IMG/VR virus record: IMGVR_UViG_3300037483_000742
Coordinates: 1 to 64,000 of that record
DNA: 64,000 nt
Source: a virus
Strand: one strand, 5' to 3'
In this document: in pieces, positions 22,951-62,736 of the stretch
Layout of the letters: every line of letters begins with the position of its first letter
Numbering within the stretch: position 1 is the first letter of the stretch
Position numbers and translations under genes: made by a program
The notes under the pieces: model-generated
What the model saw: the letters and a program-made list of their open reading frames with translations, nothing else
Database searches by the model: none
What the model was told of the DNA's origin: nothing

Positions 22951-24843
22951 TTAAGCTGCTTCAATTAAAAGATTTCCATTATCTAGATACAATCTATGTC
23001 TAGTATTTAAAGTTCTATCTTCAAATACAATACCTTTGACTATTCCCATAATTTCTAAATCACCATAAACTTCAATAAGTGAGGTATTACCACTTCCTGT
23101 AGCATTACCAAATATTGATCTACCACTAGTAGTGATAATAGCATAGTTAGTTGCTCCACCTCCAGCAGCTTCAAAATAAGCAGCTACATTTGTAACACCA
23201 GCACCATCTACAGAACATTCAATAAATGTTCCCCAAGCTTCTTCATTAGTTACTCCTGATACCCAAGATAATTCTATCTTAGCACCATAGTTTTTAGTAT
23301 TGTTAATATCTCCTATTTGTCCAATACTAAAGTAACCTGCTCTCCTATCATCTGCTTTTTGTGATCCAACAGAACCCCATATACCAGCAGCAAAATCATT
23401 TGGAGTAACTGCATCGCCTCCATTTGCTGAAGCAAAAACTCCAACAGAACTGTCTGTTGCATTTCTGGCTGAAAAATAAGCTCCAAAATTTTGAGAGTGT
23501 CCAGCTACACCAGAATTTCCATAAAAAGACCTGGCAATACCAGCACCACTTCCAGTCACATCAGACCAAATACCATTATAATTAGTGCCACCAGTACCAC
23601 CTTGAGCTAAAATAGCATAACCATTATTAGCTAAATTATTGGATGAAATATTAATTGCTCCATCTCTACCACCACCAGCAGTAATTTTTAAACGATCTCC
23701 AACAACAGGAGCAGTATTAATACCTATGCTACCATCATTTTGCATTTGAAAAAGTTGATCATCTGCAAGATTCCAGAAACCAAAATTTCTTGTAGCAAAC
23801 AAATTATCATAACCTTTAACAGCAAGAGGAGAAGCTACAGATATTGATCCAGTATTTGTACCAATCCAAGCTTCAGTAGCTATAGTAGTTCTACCAGTAG
23901 CAGAAACATTTAGAACAGTAGCTGCTGCTGCATTTCTCACTTGTAAAATACTCTCAGCAGGAGATAAATTTCCTGACGAAATTATAGTACCAAATCCTTG
24001 TCCAGAGGCTGAATGAATTGTAACTTTAGCTCCTGCTGAAGGAAGCGTACCAAATCCCCAATCACCAATTGAATTATAACTACCTGCAAGAATTGCTGTA
24101 TTATTTGCATAAAAATCCATCCTAATTGTAGTAGGACCAATATTCATGTATGCTGTACTATTTGACCCAGCAAAAAGTTCTACTAAAGATTCAGGATTAA
24201 CACCTCCACCATTAGTTGCTCTAACACCAGTAACAGAATGTGTATCTGTTACATAAGACATTATACCACTAGCATTATTATACTCCCAATAATTTGTTGC
24301 AATACTTGTTTGGTTTCTAACATAACCACCAGAAGTTAGTTGAAAGTAACCATTCACTCCAGCTAACCCATGATTAAAAAACAAATTTGTTCTAATTTGT
24401 ACCGTTCTTGTTATAGCAGTAATAATACCATCAGAATTATAGATATTAGTGGAAGCTGTAGGAGATGGAATCCAGGCTCCTGTTCCGTTTACATCAATAG
24501 AAGTCCAAATATATCCAACAACACCTTCAGTACCGTCCTGAAGTCTAAACATTCCTGCTGGTCCTGCTATTGTCAGAGTATCTGTAACTGTTACAGTTCT
24601 ATCTGTTCCTGTTACACCATCTCCAGTGTATAAAGTAACTGGAATTAAAGCAGACAAATCGATAGTAATATCTGGAGTTACACCATTATTATCTACTAAG
24701 GTTAATGTCATTGTATCAGGATCATAACTACCACCATTAACATAAATGTCAGTAGTAGGTAATTTTGAAACCTTACATTTTAAATCCTGAACCTCCCTGA
24801 AGAGTTTTTCAAGTGTCTCTCTATTTATTTCTTTTGGTGGCAT
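22951..24843 (-). CDS. Tail fibre protein
   Basis: 630 aa, Gly/Asn/Thr-rich; N-terminal coiled coil; repeated (T/N)(L/I)YxxDG..RTV units. Confidence 0.7.
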   Translation of the reverse strand: MPPKEINRETLEKLFREVQDLKCKVSKLPTTDIYVNGGSYDPDTMTLTLVDNNGVTPDITIDLSALIPVTLYTGDGVTGTDRTVTVTDTLTIAGPAGMFRLQDGTEGVVGYIWTSIDVNGTGAWIPSPTASTNIYNSDGIITAITRTVQIRTNLFFNHGLAGVNGYFQLTSGGYVRNQTSIATNYWEYNNASGIMSYVTDTHSVTGVRATNGGGVNPESLVELFAGSNSTAYMNIGPTTIRMDFYANNTAILAGSYNSIGDWGFGTLPSAGAKVTIHSASGQGFGTIISSGNLSPAESILQVRNAAAATVLNVSATGRTTIATEAWIGTNTGSISVASPLAVKGYDNLFATRNFGFWNLADDQLFQMQNDGSIGINTAPVVGDRLKITAGGGRDGAINISSNNLANNGYAILAQGGTGGTNYNGIWSDVTGSGAGIARSFYGNSGVAGHSQNFGAYFSARNATDSSVGVFASANGGDAVTPNDFAAGIWGSVGSQKADDRRAGYFSIGQIGDINNTKNYGAKIELSWVSGVTNEEAWGTFIECSVDGAGVTNVAAYFEAAGGGATNYAIITTSGRSIFGNATGSGNTSLIEVYGDLEIMGIVKGIVFEDRTLNTRHRLYLDNGNLLIEAA

Positions 24844-29319: not shown

Positions 29320-30783
29320 TTATGCTCTAGAAAGAATCAATTCTCCACATTTGGTTACATCATGGATGTGAACACCACAAGATTTACCAACATGCATTTC
29401 ATAGTAGTCACCAGCATGTGCTGCCATGTGACCTTTAGAAGGACCAAATGGACCTACTGCACCATGAACATAAGTGAAAGTTTCAGCATCTTTTTTCTTC
29501 ATGTATTTAATGTTAGAAGAAGAGCTACCACCATCAGCAGAGAAATCTAAGAAAGTGATTCTTTGTGATTCTACAGGATAACCTGTAATTGGATCAATCT
29601 CAAAGTTAATCTCTCTATCATCATACAATGGATTATGCACCAATTCAAGTGTAGCACCATTTGCCATGTTGTATCTTACAAACTGATAACCTGCTTCTAA
29701 AGCATTAGTGTTAAGGTCAGATTTAACCTTGTTGGTAAACACTTCAACGTTTTTAATAAACCCTGATTTGTTCATCCAATCTTGGATAGCTCTGTGGAAC
29801 ATCAACATACCATACTCTCCAGTATATCCCTTAACATTACGTCCTCTTCCTGGTTTAGTTCTAGAGTAGAAAATATCCATCAAGAACTCTTCAATCAGAG
29901 TTGCAGTTAAGTTAGAATAACGGTGAATATGTGAATCTTCAAGTTGTTCTTGAATACCTGGGCCAGAGCGCACTGGTCTACCATTAGCACCTTTTACAGT
30001 GTCTGTAGAACGTGTATACCATACACCTCTTTCCAGTTCTCTGTACCACTGTTGCCAGTATTCTACTTCGGCATATTTCATCCATGAAGTATGATACTGA
30101 CCTTTGTTGTCAGGGATTGCTACTGCCAATACTTCTTGTGAAGCATAGTCAGTGATTTTGTATTTCTTTCTAAACTTAGACATTTTATTGCTAAGTGAAA
30201 GTGGTGTGCTGAATTGGGTAGAACCTGATTGTTCAGCAGCCTCTTCATAGAGAGAATACAATTTAGCCCACTGTTGACCAGTAGTTAAATATGTTACTGG
30301 GATAAAATCAGCAGGATCATCAGACATCATCCTTACTTCATATACCCATCCATCTCCATGACGTTGAACTTCAGATTCAACACGTACCTGAAACTTCTTG
30401 TTAGAACTTCCTGGTGAGAGAACATCTCCTGGTACATACCAGTTTTCATCTAGTTTAAGTTTAAATGGTCTTTTAAACTTACCAGGAGTTACATTTGAAG
30501 CAGGCATAACATTTTCCATTACAACTAATGGTCTTGTGTTAGCTCCTTTCAAATCCCACTCCCAACTAGTAGAGGTGATAGTTTCTTCGGTAGCTTTGTT
30601 ACCCATCAACATGGATAATAGTGGGTTGTCAGAATAGACATTTTGTGCTGAGAATAGCTGGTCCATTTTCCCACTAAATTTGTGTGGTTTTGCCAATAAA
30701 GCAGCTCCCAAATGGGATTGCTCCGTCATATTAGCATTCCACTGCATTTCTTTAGTAATTAACTTACTTCCAAGTGTTGCCAT
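29320..30783 (-). CDS. Major capsid protein (crAss-like)
   Basis: 487 aa; WEWDL, GPGIQEQLE and HNPLYDD...PITGYPVESQRITFLDF blocks; follows portal and scaffold. Confidence 0.9.
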   Translation of the reverse strand: MATLGSKLITKEMQWNANMTEQSHLGAALLAKPHKFSGKMDQLFSAQNVYSDNPLLSMLMGNKATEETITSTSWEWDLKGANTRPLVVMENVMPASNVTPGKFKRPFKLKLDENWYVPGDVLSPGSSNKKFQVRVESEVQRHGDGWVYEVRMMSDDPADFIPVTYLTTGQQWAKLYSLYEEAAEQSGSTQFSTPLSLSNKMSKFRKKYKITDYASQEVLAVAIPDNKGQYHTSWMKYAEVEYWQQWYRELERGVWYTRSTDTVKGANGRPVRSGPGIQEQLEDSHIHRYSNLTATLIEEFLMDIFYSRTKPGRGRNVKGYTGEYGMLMFHRAIQDWMNKSGFIKNVEVFTNKVKSDLNTNALEAGYQFVRYNMANGATLELVHNPLYDDREINFEIDPITGYPVESQRITFLDFSADGGSSSSNIKYMKKKDAETFTYVHGAVGPFGPSKGHMAAHAGDYYEMHVGKSCGVHIHDVTKCGELILSRA

Positions 30784-37613: not shown

Positions 37614-38207
37614 TTAAAATTCATCTATTAAACAATAAGTAAATTTCTTCTGTGGTCTTGTTGATCTCATTAAATTGTAATATTTTTCAGTATCATTAGG
37701 ACACTGACAACCAGTACTCCATTGACCAATTAAACTTTTGATAATTTTTGCAGTAGCATCATAAGAAACAGTATGAAAGTTAAGTCCATTATTACTCTCT
37801 AAAGTCCAGTTAGTGTTATCTCCTGACTTTTTATTTTTGTTTCCGTCTCTGATTACTTTGAACTCTCCAACCTGACGAAGACATTCCATGTTCTTACCAT
37901 TGTGTGTTAATGATCTTTCCCATACACTATAGTACCATTCATCGGCCTTGATTACTGCTGCACCATTTCTATTCCATTTCATGAAATTAAGAAGACCATA
38001 AGTTCCAGGATTTGTAGTACCTGAAAGCATAGTCACAAATTCTTCATCTTTAAAGACATAAAATTTATCATCAAATTCATCAGGAGAATCTTCATTCGAT
38101 CTTACTCCTAGAATCCAAACTCCACCTGGAATTTTGATAAAACTTGGTAATGATTTTACTTTATTTAAAAGTTCTTCATTGGTGTACTCTCTTACATTTG
38201 TTTTCAT
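37614..38207 (-). CDS. Putative lysin, L,D-transpeptidase (YkuD)-like
   Basis: ILGVRS..FDDKF..GTTNPG and GLNFH...WSTGCQ, a YkuD-like His/Cys pair. Confidence 0.6.
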   Translation of the reverse strand: MKTNVREYTNEELLNKVKSLPSFIKIPGGVWILGVRSNEDSPDEFDDKFYVFKDEEFVTMLSGTTNPGTYGLLNFMKWNRNGAAVIKADEWYYSVWERSLTHNGKNMECLRQVGEFKVIRDGNKNKKSGDNTNWTLESNNGLNFHTVSYDATAKIIKSLIGQWSTGCQCPNDTEKYYNLMRSTRPQKKFTYCLIDEF

Positions 38208-38506
38208 TTTCTTACAGTTGCTGTAAATGTGAGGGTTTGATTTGTACCATCATCATAATACAAGGTTATTGATTTTTTAGTTTTGTATTCTGTCTTGTTC
38301 TGTTGAATCAAATGCAAAGGAATGTTGGCAGGGTTGTAGCTTACAGTTAATTTTTTTGATGGTTTATCCCAGGATGGTTCACTACATCCACATGAAGAAC
38401 TCATATTCTTTATTTCTTTGAAATCTCCTATAGCTTGAAAGATAACTTCTTTCTTGATCTTTGGTCTTACAACTCCTAAACTAATTTCTGTCTGTTCCCA
38501 TTCCAT
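38204..38506 (-). CDS. DUF1573-like Ig-fold protein
   Basis: SSSCGCSEPSW motif and C-terminal KSITLY..LTFTATV strands. Confidence 0.65.
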   Translation of the reverse strand: MEWEQTEISLGVVRPKIKKEVIFQAIGDFKEIKNMSSSCGCSEPSWDKPSKKLTVSYNPANIPLHLIQQNKTEYKTKKSITLYYDDGTNQTLTFTATVRK

Positions 38507-38954
38507 ACTTTATTTTTCTTTTATAATGAACTAAATCAGAATTTTTGTAAATGTAGTAAATTATTTCTGTACTACAACCTTCACTTCCTCTGCTTGTTCT
38601 GGTTTCTTTTACTAACTTCCATTTATCTTTTTTGTAAGTTACTTCTTGCATTGATGCTAATTTTATCCAATTCTTTTTACTCAACATAGGAGGATAACAA
38701 GGTTTACTACAAGATTTATTTGCCATCTGTAAAGCTGTAGTTGTACATCCACACATCTGACAACTTCCTTGATCATAACAATCCGTGTTCATCACTTCTA
38801 TTCTCATTTCAATCTGATCTAAGATATGCCATCTTATTAACCATTGAAGTCTTGAGTAATAAAGTTTATACCTTAAATTACCAATCAAATAAGCTAAGAT
38901 ATTTTTAATTGTTTTCTTTTGTTCCATAGAAGATAGGCATACTTTTATTAACAT
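38481..38954 (-). CDS. Cys-rich zinc-binding protein
   Basis: CYDQGSCQMCGC...SCSKPCYP. Confidence 0.55.
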   Translation of the reverse strand: MLIKVCLSSMEQKKTIKNILAYLIGNLRYKLYYSRLQWLIRWHILDQIEMRIEVMNTDCYDQGSCQMCGCTTTALQMANKSCSKPCYPPMLSKKNWIKLASMQEVTYKKDKWKLVKETRTSRGSEGCSTEIIYYIYKNSDLVHYKRKIKYGMGTDRN

Positions 38955-39198
38955 CCACTTTACTTAAATCTACTACAGCCATCCTGTAACTTTCAACTGT
39001 TGCTCCATGTGCTTCATCAACTCTGTCAAATAAAGGATTTACTGCCATTGTAACTTCTACTTCAAATGGTTCTAGGTCTTGTAGTCCTTTAGGTTTAGGT
39101 ATGTAGTTATCCCAATCTTCTTGAGTCCACCACTCTCTTTCAAAATCACCAACACCATTTGGATTAACTGTTAACTTTTGTGTTATAAAATCTGTCAT
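38905..39198 (-). CDS. Small protein containing an MCP-like segment
   Basis: NPLFD..GATVESYRMAVVDLS resembles NPLYD..GYPVESQRITFLDFS of the MCP in this window. Confidence 0.55.
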   Translation of the reverse strand: MTDFITQKLTVNPNGVGDFEREWWTQEDWDNYIPKPKGLQDLEPFEVEVTMAVNPLFDRVDEAHGATVESYRMAVVDLSKVDVNKSMPIFYGTKENN

Positions 39199-39506
39199 AT
39201 CATATTATTTTGAAGTGATATAGTTATTTCTTTTACTCCATCAATCTTTATTTTTTCTGCCAGTTGTCTTTGGTATTCTAATATAAACTGATGCTTTATT
39301 TCTAATGCTAATTCATATCCTCTACCATCATCCATTATCTTTATAGTCTTTCCTTTCTGCAATGCTAATACACCTTCTTTAACATTTTTCTCATATTGTT
39401 TTTGCTTCCAATTATCTTCAAATTTTGGTTCAGGCATTATAACAGTTGGTTTTTGTCTTTTAAAAATTGTCCAATTCATATTATTTAATATTAAGATATT
39501 TTTCAA
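39195..39506 (-). CDS. Hypothetical protein
   Basis: 103-aa ORF in operon; true start may be the second Met. Confidence 0.5.
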   Translation of the reverse strand: MKNILILNNMNWTIFKRQKPTVIMPEPKFEDNWKQKQYEKNVKEGVLALQKGKTIKIMDDGRGYELALEIKHQFILEYQRQLAEKIKIDGVKEITISLQNNMI

Positions 39507-39786
39507 TCATTTCTTTAAACTCTTTGTGTTGCTCTGGAGTAATTAAATTCTTTTCTAATCTTTCATCCAATTGACTCAATTCAAACATTGCTTTCTTAGG
39601 ATATACTTTGAACTTACCAAAGAATTTTAATTTTATTTGAGGTAGTTCTCCTGACTCCATTTGCTGTTTTGTATACAGCCAGGGTGTAGATACTATCTCT
39701 TTGAATTGTTCAAAAGAAAGATGAGGATATTCATCTTTCTTCTTTAAATAGAAAGCTTCAAATAATTCTGGATTACTGAACTCCAT
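39481..39786 (-). CDS. HU/IHF-like DNA-binding protein
   Basis: ELPQIKLKFFGKFKV beta-arm motif. Confidence 0.6.
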   Translation of the reverse strand: MEFSNPELFEAFYLKKKDEYPHLSFEQFKEIVSTPWLYTKQQMESGELPQIKLKFFGKFKVYPKKAMFELSQLDERLEKNLITPEQHKEFKEMIEKYLNIK

Positions 39787-40087
39787 TCTTTACGAATTTA
39801 GGATCATCAATAAATATGGTAGTACCATTTACTTTAAAACTTTTATTGTATTCCATTTTATGTTCAAATTTTAATCTTCTCATTATACCTCTAAGAAGAT
39901 TTGTTTGAACAGCAGAATGAGATTTCCAATCTGGATCAAGTATTAAAGTATTTCTATTCTTGGATTCAGAATTTAATCTTTCTATTTGTTTATTTGTAGG
40001 TACTTCAATAATACCTTCTGTAAAAAGAACTTGTATAGCATGATCTATAGTTCTTGTAGTTTTACCTGTCATTCTATTCTCTTCCAT
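39773..40087 (-). CDS. Small protein with an isolated terminase-like Walker A motif
   Basis: RMTGKTTRTIDHAIQVL at the N-terminus of a 104-aa protein. Confidence 0.5.
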   Translation of the reverse strand: MEENRMTGKTTRTIDHAIQVLFTEGIIEVPTNKQIERLNSESKNRNTLILDPDWKSHSAVQTNLLRGIMRRLKFEHKMEYNKSFKVNGTTIFIDDPKFVKNGVQ

Positions 40088-60834: not shown

Positions 60835-62736
60835 ATGAAGTACACAGTATTCGATTTAGAGAGTGATGGTTTATTAGATATAGTAACAAAGATACATTGT
60901 CTGAGTTACAGAATTTTTGATAGTAAACAGTTACTATATTCTGGTACTATAACTGATTATGAAGAAATGAAGAAATTTATTATGGCTCAAGAAATTCTTG
61001 TGGGCCATAATATAATTCTTTATGATGTTCCTGTGATCAGAAAGATACTTCATATAGACCCCCTGGCTGAATTAATTGACTCTTTGGGATTGTCCTGGTA
61101 CTTATCCCCAATTAAAGGCTTTAAGCATGGTTTAGAAGCTTGGGGAGAAAGGTTTGGTATTCCTAAACCAGTTATTAAGGATTGGAATAATCTGACTATT
61201 CAGGAATATATTCATAGATGTGAAGAGGATGTTAAGATAAATTCTAGACTTATCCATGAAACTTTAGACTACATGATGGAAATCTATGGAGATTTTGATC
61301 AAGTTAAGAGAGCAATAGCTTACAATAGATTTAAATTGGAATGTTTGAAAGAGCAACAAGAAAATGGTATAACTTTAGATCAAAGACTTGCAGAAGAAAG
61401 CAGAATGAATTTAGAGTTTGAAATTGAAGAGAAAGTTTCAAAACTCTCTAAAATGATGCCAGCTATTGAAGATAAAAAAGCTCCTAAAAAAATGTACAAG
61501 AAAGATGGAACTTTATCTGCACATGGAGAAAAATGGAAAGTTTACACTGAATCAAAAGGTCTTACTGTTGAAGCTGAGAAAACATATTTGCCAGGAAATC
61601 CTGGCTCTAATGATCAACTTAAAAATTGGTTGTTTTCTTATGGCTGGAAACCTCAAACTTTCAAAGTATCAAAAGCTACAAAGAAAAGATTAGCACAAGT
61701 TTCTCTTCCTTTTGGAGGGGGTTTATGCCCAAGTGTAATTGAATTAATTGAACAACATCCTGAATTGAAAGAGTTAGAAGGCTTCTTTGTTGCAAGACAT
61801 AGAGCAGGTCTTTTTAAATCATTCTTAGAAAATATGGATGATAAAGGTTTGATTTATTCTACAGCACAAGGATTTACTAATACTTACAGAATGCAGCATT
61901 CTAAGCCAATTGCTAATTTGCCAGGAGTAGATAAATTCTATGGTAAAGAAGTGAGAGGTTGTATTGCAGTTCCTGATGAAAGTTATGAGATGGTTGGAAG
62001 TGATATTTCTGGATTGGAGGATAATACTAAACAACATTACATGTATTTCTACGATCCTGACTATGTTAATGAAATGAGAATCCCAGGATTTGATCCTCAC
62101 ATAGATATTGCTGTTTTTGCTGGTCTAATGACAGAAGAACAAGCTAGTAGGTTCAAAGAATTAAATGCTAAAGTAGAAAATGAAGAAACTTTAACTCCTG
62201 AAGAAAAAACAGAATTTAAAGCACTCAAATTAATCAGAGGAAATGCAAAGGTAGTAAACTTCTCAGGAGTATATGGAGCAGGACCACCTAAGATGGCAGA
62301 GACTTTGAAGAGTGATTTAGCATTTGCAGAAAAACTACATACTGCTTACTGGAAAAGAAATTCCTCAGTGAAAAAAGTAGCTAAGAATTGTAAAGTTGCT
62401 AAAGTTAGAAATCAAGCTTGGTTATACAATCCTGTTTCTGGTCTTTGGATGTTTCTAAAAGAAGATAAAGATAGATTTAGTACTTTGAATCAGAGTACTG
62501 GAGTTTATGTTTTTGACACTTGGATGAAATATGTTAGAAGAAGATTGAATCCAATGGGAATTAAAATTCTACTACAATATCATGATGAACTTTTGATACA
62601 GTACAAAAAGGAATTTAAAACTGTAGTAGCTATGCATTTAAAAGAAGCTATGATTGAAGCTAATGAAGAACTTCAATTGAATGTGAAAATAGAAATTAGT
62701 AGCAACTTTGGTAAAAATTATGCAGAATGCCATTAG
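60835..62736 (+). CDS. Family A DNA polymerase with 3'-5' exonuclease
   Basis: FDLESDGL, GHNIILYD, RCEEDV; motif A GSDISGLE, motif B KVVNFSGVYG, motif C QYHDE. Confidence 0.95.
   Translation: MKYTVFDLESDGLLDIVTKIHCLSYRIFDSKQLLYSGTITDYEEMKKFIMAQEILVGHNIILYDVPVIRKILHIDPLAELIDSLGLSWYLSPIKGFKHGLEAWGERFGIPKPVIKDWNNLTIQEYIHRCEEDVKINSRLIHETLDYMMEIYGDFDQVKRAIAYNRFKLECLKEQQENGITLDQRLAEESRMNLEFEIEEKVSKLSKMMPAIEDKKAPKKMYKKDGTLSAHGEKWKVYTESKGLTVEAEKTYLPGNPGSNDQLKNWLFSYGWKPQTFKVSKATKKRLAQVSLPFGGGLCPSVIELIEQHPELKELEGFFVARHRAGLFKSFLENMDDKGLIYSTAQGFTNTYRMQHSKPIANLPGVDKFYGKEVRGCIAVPDESYEMVGSDISGLEDNTKQHYMYFYDPDYVNEMRIPGFDPHIDIAVFAGLMTEEQASRFKELNAKVENEETLTPEEKTEFKALKLIRGNAKVVNFSGVYGAGPPKMAETLKSDLAFAEKLHTAYWKRNSSVKKVAKNCKVAKVRNQAWLYNPVSGLWMFLKEDKDRFSTLNQSTGVYVFDTWMKYVRRRLNPMGIKILLQYHDELLIQYKKEFKTVVAMHLKEAMIEANEELQLNVKIEISSNFGKNYAECH

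Follow-up and report, generated by a model that had tools for sequence, protein, structure and literature searches.

The 64,000-nucleotide window analysed here belongs to a viral record of 92,012 bp that has direct terminal repeats. It comes from a crAss-like, flavobacterial phage, whose nearest cultured relatives are Flavobacterium psychrophilum phages of the genus Fipvunavirus (76% identity in the major capsid protein, MCP). Our subject is a 97-aa open reading frame (ORF) in a long minus-strand operon of this phage (Table 1). A first-pass annotation, made from the letters of the window, had placed this ORF upstream of the capsid genes, and the MCP gene indeed lies 8 kb downstream on the same strand, separated from it by the genes for TerL, the portal and an acidic, scaffold-like protein of 406 aa. 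The ORF is also intact and overlaps both of its neighbours, as had been noted: it overlaps the upstream ORF by 4 nt (ATGA), and its overlap with the downstream ORF is 50 nt with the listed coordinates or 23 nt when counted from the likely start of the downstream ORF. The block of small genes upstream of TerL includes an endolysin-like gene (phrog_3000 / phrog_33083; window 37614-38207, minus strand), so that lysis and packaging genes have one common operon start. A DUF1573 protein of 100 aa (38204-38506, minus strand) and a 630-aa structural protein (22951-24843, minus strand) gave a z-score of 3.6 when compared with each other, and they may have an Ig-like domain in common.

Table 1. Positions in the window of the 97-aa ORF, its two halves, the adjoining inserted ORF and the MCP segment that the small protein resembles
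Feature	Position	Strand	Remarks
Major capsid protein (MCP), 487 aa, Crass_capsid	29320..30783	-	PF23898 E 7e-162; phrog_11589
MCP hairpin copied by the small protein, residues 376-417	29533..29658	-	Probable P-domain hairpin (P-loop), HK97 fold
97-aa ORF, member of a new small-protein family	38905..39198	-	Acidic, pI 4.4
N-terminal module of the 97-aa protein, residues 1-45	39064..39198	-	Strand, conserved motif, helix; MCP similarity absent
MCP-like hairpin of the 97-aa protein, residues 46-81	38956..39063	-	Strand, Asn-Pro-Leu-Phe-Asp turn, loop, Glu-Ser-Tyr-Arg, second strand ending Asp-Leu-Ser
103-aa ORF	39195..39506	-	With the 97-aa ORF, a two-gene insertion relative to relatives; no link to the family elsewhere

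To place the ORF in its genomic context, we compared the region with the corresponding region of 17 relatives. In 15 of these, including Fpv1 and Fpv3, homologues of the genes at 39481-39786 and 38481-38954 are directly adjacent or separated by no more than ~160 bp; the remaining two are without one of these two flanking genes, and none of the 17 carries a member of the family to which the 97-aa ORF belongs. Because the flanking genes lie close together in relatives without a family member, the 103-aa and 97-aa ORFs represent an insertion, which base composition does not mark as foreign. The gene is accessory in the window's own clade and is therefore not a core assembly factor. Another insertion relative to these relatives is a 104-aa ORF with a Walker-A-like start (39773-40087, minus strand). 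A wider 'decoy cassette' that would include this second ORF was considered and rejected: it has no similarity to TerL (z -1.2), and its gappy match to a 264-aa protein encoded downstream of the MCP gene is at chance level (hhalign probability 1.4%).

The 97-aa protein consists of two halves. The N-terminal module carries the motif Gly-Asp-Phe ... Glu-Trp-Trp-Thr ... Glu-Asp-Trp and is the most conserved part of the family, with Gly17, Asp18 and Asp28 invariant and Glu22 and Trp23 nearly invariant. An AlphaFold2 model of the whole protein (pLDDT 72) predicts a strand at residues 4-11, helices at 18-22 and 26-32, another strand at 45-52 and, at 55-58, a turn helix. In their local pattern, the hairpin's first strand and turn follow the MCP, and the second strand is unmodelled (pLDDT 56-72). 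No structural neighbours of this model were found by Foldseek against the PDB, by a wide VIA-align search or in the ESM Atlas, and no Pfam or PHROG family covers the window ORF or the unannotated family to which it belongs. The possibility that the protein is a 'mini P-domain', whose N-terminal half would correspond to the spine-helix region of the MCP, had no support from sequence, with an hhalign score of 10.6, below that of shuffles; weak secondary HMMER stretches at MCP residues 220-257 reached at most ~2 bits.

According to the first-pass annotation, the C-terminal half of the protein is a diverged copy of an MCP segment. The alignment on which this claim was based reproduces, with 11 identities and a 6-residue gap between residues 48-78 of the small protein and residues 378-414 of the MCP. 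BLASTP, however, prefers a different register (E 0.063), the Smith-Waterman score is 51 (shuffle p 0.0075), and in a scan of 10 small against 9 large window proteins two unrelated pairs scored equally high (z ~3.5-4.4). The single pairwise match is thus weak and is no better than chance in a window-wide comparison. The two segments had also been described as too diverged for a recent duplication, and this holds: their nucleotide identity in the window is 43/87, and the codons are largely different.

Searches for homologues revealed a metagenome-only family of ~35 small proteins with lengths of 72-127 aa, plus one of 183 aa, and a median pI of 5.1. Of 1.84 billion representatives that were exhaustively searched, 11 proved to be small relatives; searching with a profile raised 24 (E-values of 1e-10 to 1e-30 against the family profile), and locus scans identified 9 viral and 15 metagenome loci. 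DNA-pattern scans added one further genome (G009), all other matches being chance or already-known contigs. In the family alignment, which contains 29 members, the N-terminal strand, the motif and the helix after it are common to all, and the C-terminal half runs from a strand through an Asn-Pro-x-aromatic-Asp turn and a loop to Glu-Ser-Tyr-Arg, followed by a second strand that ends in Asp-x-Ser. The N-terminal motif and the C-terminal hairpin therefore occur together in proteins of 72-127 aa, and the hairpin motif is conserved among homologues of the small ORF, a point that the annotation had proposed to check. The family has no conserved cysteines. No members were found in 185,579 prokaryote genomes, in the 50,697 phage records of INPHARED, where a cultured representative is absent, or in 29 cultured phages of Flavobacterium. 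Longer or fused forms were sought as well, and there were none.

In the window and at eight of nine other viral loci, the gene lies on the same strand as the TerL-portal-scaffold-MCP genes and upstream of them; at the exception, L057, the contig end cuts the locus and no TerL is seen. At several loci, the gene directly precedes a homologue of the 192-aa gene that comes before TerL. G009 differs from this arrangement. It is a 49-kb contig without a crAss-type MCP or TerL (IMGVR_UViG_3300013126_000051), on which the gene does not adjoin the head genes and is not upstream of TerL-portal-MCP. It encodes the 183-aa member (L096:17927-18478, minus strand), which has a long coiled-coil-like N-terminal extension, as well as a 4118-aa ORF, a phrog_156 portal and an MCP candidate in other, non-crAss PHROGs (phrog_26635 / phrog_1328). 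Another contig, the 103-kb crAss-like IMGVR_UViG_3300048837_000398 (L062 / L067-L070), has its MCP in three pieces (61993-62700, 64000-64326 and 65369-65719) that lie ~1.0-1.3 kb apart, and its TerL and portal gene are each represented by two ORFs; the core head genes are probably interrupted here by introns or by insertions of homing endonucleases.

Two family members, P0002 and P0003, have the same sequence up to residue 57, but within the hairpin, beyond the Asn-Pro turn, they become sharply different. Judged by their sequences, this pair is a natural hairpin swap, a recombination-like mosaic. P0014, a giant Ig-repeat protein of 1748 aa, has four matches to the second strand of the hairpin (E 9e-4), which look like chance at the level of a beta-strand. 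In a search of PDB sequences, the family profile matched one hairpin of the histone chaperone NAP1 (13.9 bits, E 0.43, 48 residues); kinship with NAP1 was rejected, as there was no match beyond this one hairpin, and we read it as chance at the hairpin level.

We next compared the family with MCPs at the level of profiles, which the first-pass annotation had suggested as a check. In hhalign comparisons with MCP alignments, residues 46-81 of the small protein corresponded to residues 376-417 of the MCP, in the register given by the annotation. The P value was 1.2e-6 with 13 family sequences and 8.5e-9 with 29, and comparison with a more diverse MCP set gave a probability of 96.4% and a P value of 1.4e-9. 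This signal survived leaving out subgroups. The maximum among 200 column shuffles was 23 versus the observed 64, the reversed profile gave a P value of 0.26, and 12 other protein families of the same phages, used as controls, gave P values of 0.15-0.77. When all 29 members were scanned against the whole of Pfam and PHROGs (~25,000 and 39,000 families), Crass_capsid and the MCP PHROG were top-ranked, and residues 78-108 of P0017 matched profile positions 394-424 with an E-value of 3.4e-5. The three most conserved residues of the C-terminal half, Pro55, Ser70 and Asp77, correspond to MCP Pro385, Ser406 and Asp413, which are conserved in at least 90% of the aligned MCPs. The family thus has a hairpin segment in common with the PF23898 / phrog_11589 MCP by profile comparison. 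A full-length MCP match above the curated cut-off of 27 bits was found for no member: the best one scored 22.9 bits over 31 of 496 profile positions, and the window ORF had no match. HMMER scores of the family against MCPs were only 12-19 bits, and database-wide searches, including those for longer proteins, did not reach any MCP. On the strength of the profile comparisons, we regard the MCP match as solid at the family level. The annotation had made its proposal depend on a significant profile match and on conservation of the motif among homologues; as the match is strong and the motif is conserved, neither point counts against it.

The order of secondary structure elements suggests where this segment lies in the capsid protein. 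An AlphaFold2 model of the MCP (pLDDT 67) contains a 20-residue spine helix (residues 237-256) and A-domain helices (294-305 and 323-340), next strands at 378-383 and 408-413, the Asn-Pro motif forming a short turn helix, and then the C-terminal strands. Given the order of these elements in the HK97 fold, the hairpin would be the one that, on leaving the A-domain, completes the sheet of the P-domain and bears the P-loop. MCP residues 376-417 are therefore, by secondary structure and fold topology, the probable P-domain hairpin (P-loop), and the segment aligns to about residues 393-430 of crAss001 gp32 (PDB 7QOF). In HK97 and D3, each local threefold is the meeting point of three P-loops, which come from neighbouring capsomers and are clamped by scaffold segments in the first prohead (PMC12749128).

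Both genes are present in seven genomes, namely the window, the crAss-like G001, G002, G006, G007 and G008, and G009, so that the comparisons below are based on only seven cognate pairs. Departures from the usual hairpin sequence are found in both genes of a genome: the Asn before Pro is replaced by Asp in G001, Ser-Ala-Arg is found instead of Ser-Tyr-Arg in G002, G007 has lost the Asn-Pro turn and has Asp-His-Ser, and the conserved Asp is changed to Asn in G008. In G006, the hairpin and its own MCP have a run of ten identities in eleven positions, and no comparison between genomes, be it of two MCPs or of two small proteins, gives a pair as close as this cognate one (16/29). Across six genomes and 29 aligned positions, the cognate score was 328, whereas permutations averaged 217.5 (p 0.008; p 0.004 for identities). 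An alignment-free, composition-normalised test of all seven genomes gave p values of 0.0004 (z-scores) and 0.0002 (raw scores); the cognate MCP ranked 2, 3, 1, 1, 1, 2 and 1 in the seven genomes, the window pair being second and the G008 pair weak (z 1.6). The N-terminal halves had no cognate excess in the same test (p 0.24). For the 183-aa protein of G009, the best local alignment to its own MCP pairs hairpin with hairpin (residues 136-171 of the small protein and 373-413 of the MCP), and none of 2000 shuffles of the C-terminal part reached its score.

The likeness between cognate hairpins does not extend to their DNA. Nucleotide identity was 42-57%, and the same codon was used in only 26 of 63 identical degenerate residues, with Ser switching between AGY and TCN codons. 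The low DNA identity and the different codons mean that the likeness is kept at the protein level and not by recent gene conversion, which these comparisons make an unlikely cause of it. Across phage lineages, the amino-acid sequence of the hairpin thus stays matched to that of the MCP encoded in its own genome. The view of the small protein as a diverged copy of an MCP segment, already supported by the profile match, is strengthened by this co-variation in seven genomes.

Together, the sequence comparisons establish a new two-part family with an MCP-derived hairpin that tracks the resident MCP, and they support a reading of the protein as a capsid mimic. What such a mimic would do is less certain. 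The first-pass annotation had suggested that the copy could titrate a capsid sensor, regulate assembly or poison the capsids of competing phages. We tentatively favour a role in assembly, possible rather than probable, in which the protein would dock on capsid proteins of its own phage; our reasons are the operon position of the gene and the known role of the P-loop interface. The P-loop interface is self-complementary, so a protein with the same hairpin could dock there. The hairpin of the small protein would then occupy the place of a neighbouring MCP's P-loop at the local threefold interface, and a docked hairpin would have to change whenever the MCP changes, which would produce co-variation at the same residues. 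According to this proposal, the small protein would bind its own MCP, or the partner of the hairpin, at capsomer edges during procapsid assembly and might serve there to cap or clamp, or might be a minor cement protein. A function that does not depend on the lineage, for example oligomerisation or the binding of a partner, may come from the N-terminal module. Tracking at the same residues would be expected in two cases, a self-complementary interface or competition with the MCP for a scaffold or host sensor.

The accessory distribution of the gene, which excludes a core role, also keeps alive a second reading, the main idea of the first-pass annotation, in which the protein would be an immune decoy. 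Produced together with the MCP or ahead of it, it would copy a short MCP motif that is read by a host sensor, and its N-terminal module would occupy or inactivate that sensor. A sporadic, insertion-like distribution is typical of counter-defence genes, matching to the resident MCP at the same residues would keep a decoy relevant, and the strongly conserved N-terminal module could act on a conserved host target. It is established that Lit and CapRel recognise short MCP motifs (preprint 10.64898/2026.01.04.697583). These sensors are activated and not blocked when the trigger binds, however, so a faithful copy could set off the defence. Moreover, the hosts here have no known capsid sensor, the gene lies within a morphogenesis operon, and a phage-encoded capsid decoy is absent from a 2026 counter-defence review and from our literature search. 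In our analysis, an immune decoy is therefore rather unlikely, and it is unlikely that the protein is the first known case of a trigger decoy, an epitope copy that is matched to the phage's own MCP and whose N-terminal module neutralises the sensor.

The mosaic formed by P0002 and P0003, with its identical first 57 residues and divergent hairpin, raises the alternative that the homology is real but without functional mimicry. The hairpin would then be an MCP fragment that was repeatedly replaced or patched through recombination with the MCP gene of its own genome or with other phages, and the function of the protein would be unrelated to the capsid. The types represented by P0017, P0020 and G006 have even the loop in common with MCPs, which suggests separate copying events. 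As the codons of cognate hairpins mostly differ at identical residues and their DNA identity is low, however, any conversion would be old, and the repeated capture of the same MCP segment in seven lineages, including one with a different MCP family, implies selection for a hairpin like that of the MCP. We regard this explanation as improbable.

Less probable still is interference, by which the protein would block or alter the capsid assembly of satellites or of co-infecting relatives whose MCPs are similar, or change capsomer angles as the size-redirecting proteins of satellites do. There is precedent for small proteins that compete for MCP binding sites in SaPI1 CpmB and P4 Sid (PMC12749128), and the accessory distribution of the gene is compatible with such a role. 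The hairpin tracks the phage's own MCP, however, so a poison would strike its producer first, and the contigs, as phage genomes of full size that have direct terminal repeats, speak against a satellite origin. Finally, a chance or convergent beta-hairpin, with the co-variation a small-sample artefact, is disfavoured and very improbable: a strand, an Asn-Pro-x-aromatic turn and a second strand do recur in unrelated folds, as the NAP1 match illustrates, the HMMER scores are low, database-wide searches return no MCP and the pairwise match is not significant after multiple testing, but the hhalign P value of 1e-9 comes with clean controls, the MCP family is first in both the Pfam and PHROG scans, the conserved residues coincide, the co-variation (p 0.0002-0.0004) has a negative internal control, and the different MCP family of G009 behaves alike.

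If the co-variation holds, the virus keeps a short, separately encoded copy of a capsid interface that is tuned to its own capsid protein. This would provide a handle on how local threefold (P-loop) contacts are controlled in the assembly of crAss-like capsids or, alternatively, would point to a new counter-defence principle, trigger mimicry. It also suggests a search rule for unannotated phage genes, namely to look for small ORFs with a variable part that tracks a structural protein of their own genome. Our literature search turned up no phage protein described as a free-standing copy of part of a capsid protein, or as co-varying with such a part.

The closest relative by sequence is the crassvirus MCP itself (PF23898, phrog_11589; crAss001 gp32, 7QOF), with which ~35 residues align, from a first strand through the Asn-Pro turn, the loop and Glu-Ser to a second strand and Asp-x-Ser, and the conserved Pro, Ser and Asp coincide. 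Unlike the MCP, the small protein has no A-domain, E-loop, I-domain, spine helix or N-arm, its N-terminal half is unrelated and its scores do not reach the Pfam cut-off; the protein is not itself a capsid protein. A small crassvirus protein, crAss001 gp57, occupies a special position in the capsid, beside the portal, as a portal-vertex auxiliary protein. It is a disulfide-linked dimer, unlike our family, which has no conserved cysteines, and no sequence or fold match to gp57 was found in a profile search of PDB sequences (E up to 10), by Foldseek or by VIA-align. Lit and CapRel read short MCP motifs, so a stand-alone copy of such a motif could in principle engage these sensors. Both are host systems, however, Bas11 Gp54 is a second activator of CapRel and not a decoy, and no phage decoy of a Lit or CapRel trigger is described in the literature searched, including the 2026 review.

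[quoted passage not shown] In proheads, the PDAR extends the P-domain sheet and contacts the P-loop at local threefold sites (PMC12749128). The PDAR differs in being part of the MCP precursor and in being removed by proteolysis, and it is not a copy of the P-loop; the two are compared here by their action. Cement proteins such as lambda gpD, phage L Dec and T4 Soc are small, accessory and sporadic, are encoded near head genes and bind at or near threefold sites, some of them adding strands to MCP sheets. Our family is similar to them in size and in its accessory, sporadic distribution. To our knowledge, no cement protein carries a copy of an MCP segment or co-varies residue for residue with the MCP. 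The nearest functional analogues of the small protein would thus be scaffold PDARs and decoration proteins, and for the decoy reading the conceptual analogue would be the sensing of short motifs by Lit and CapRel.
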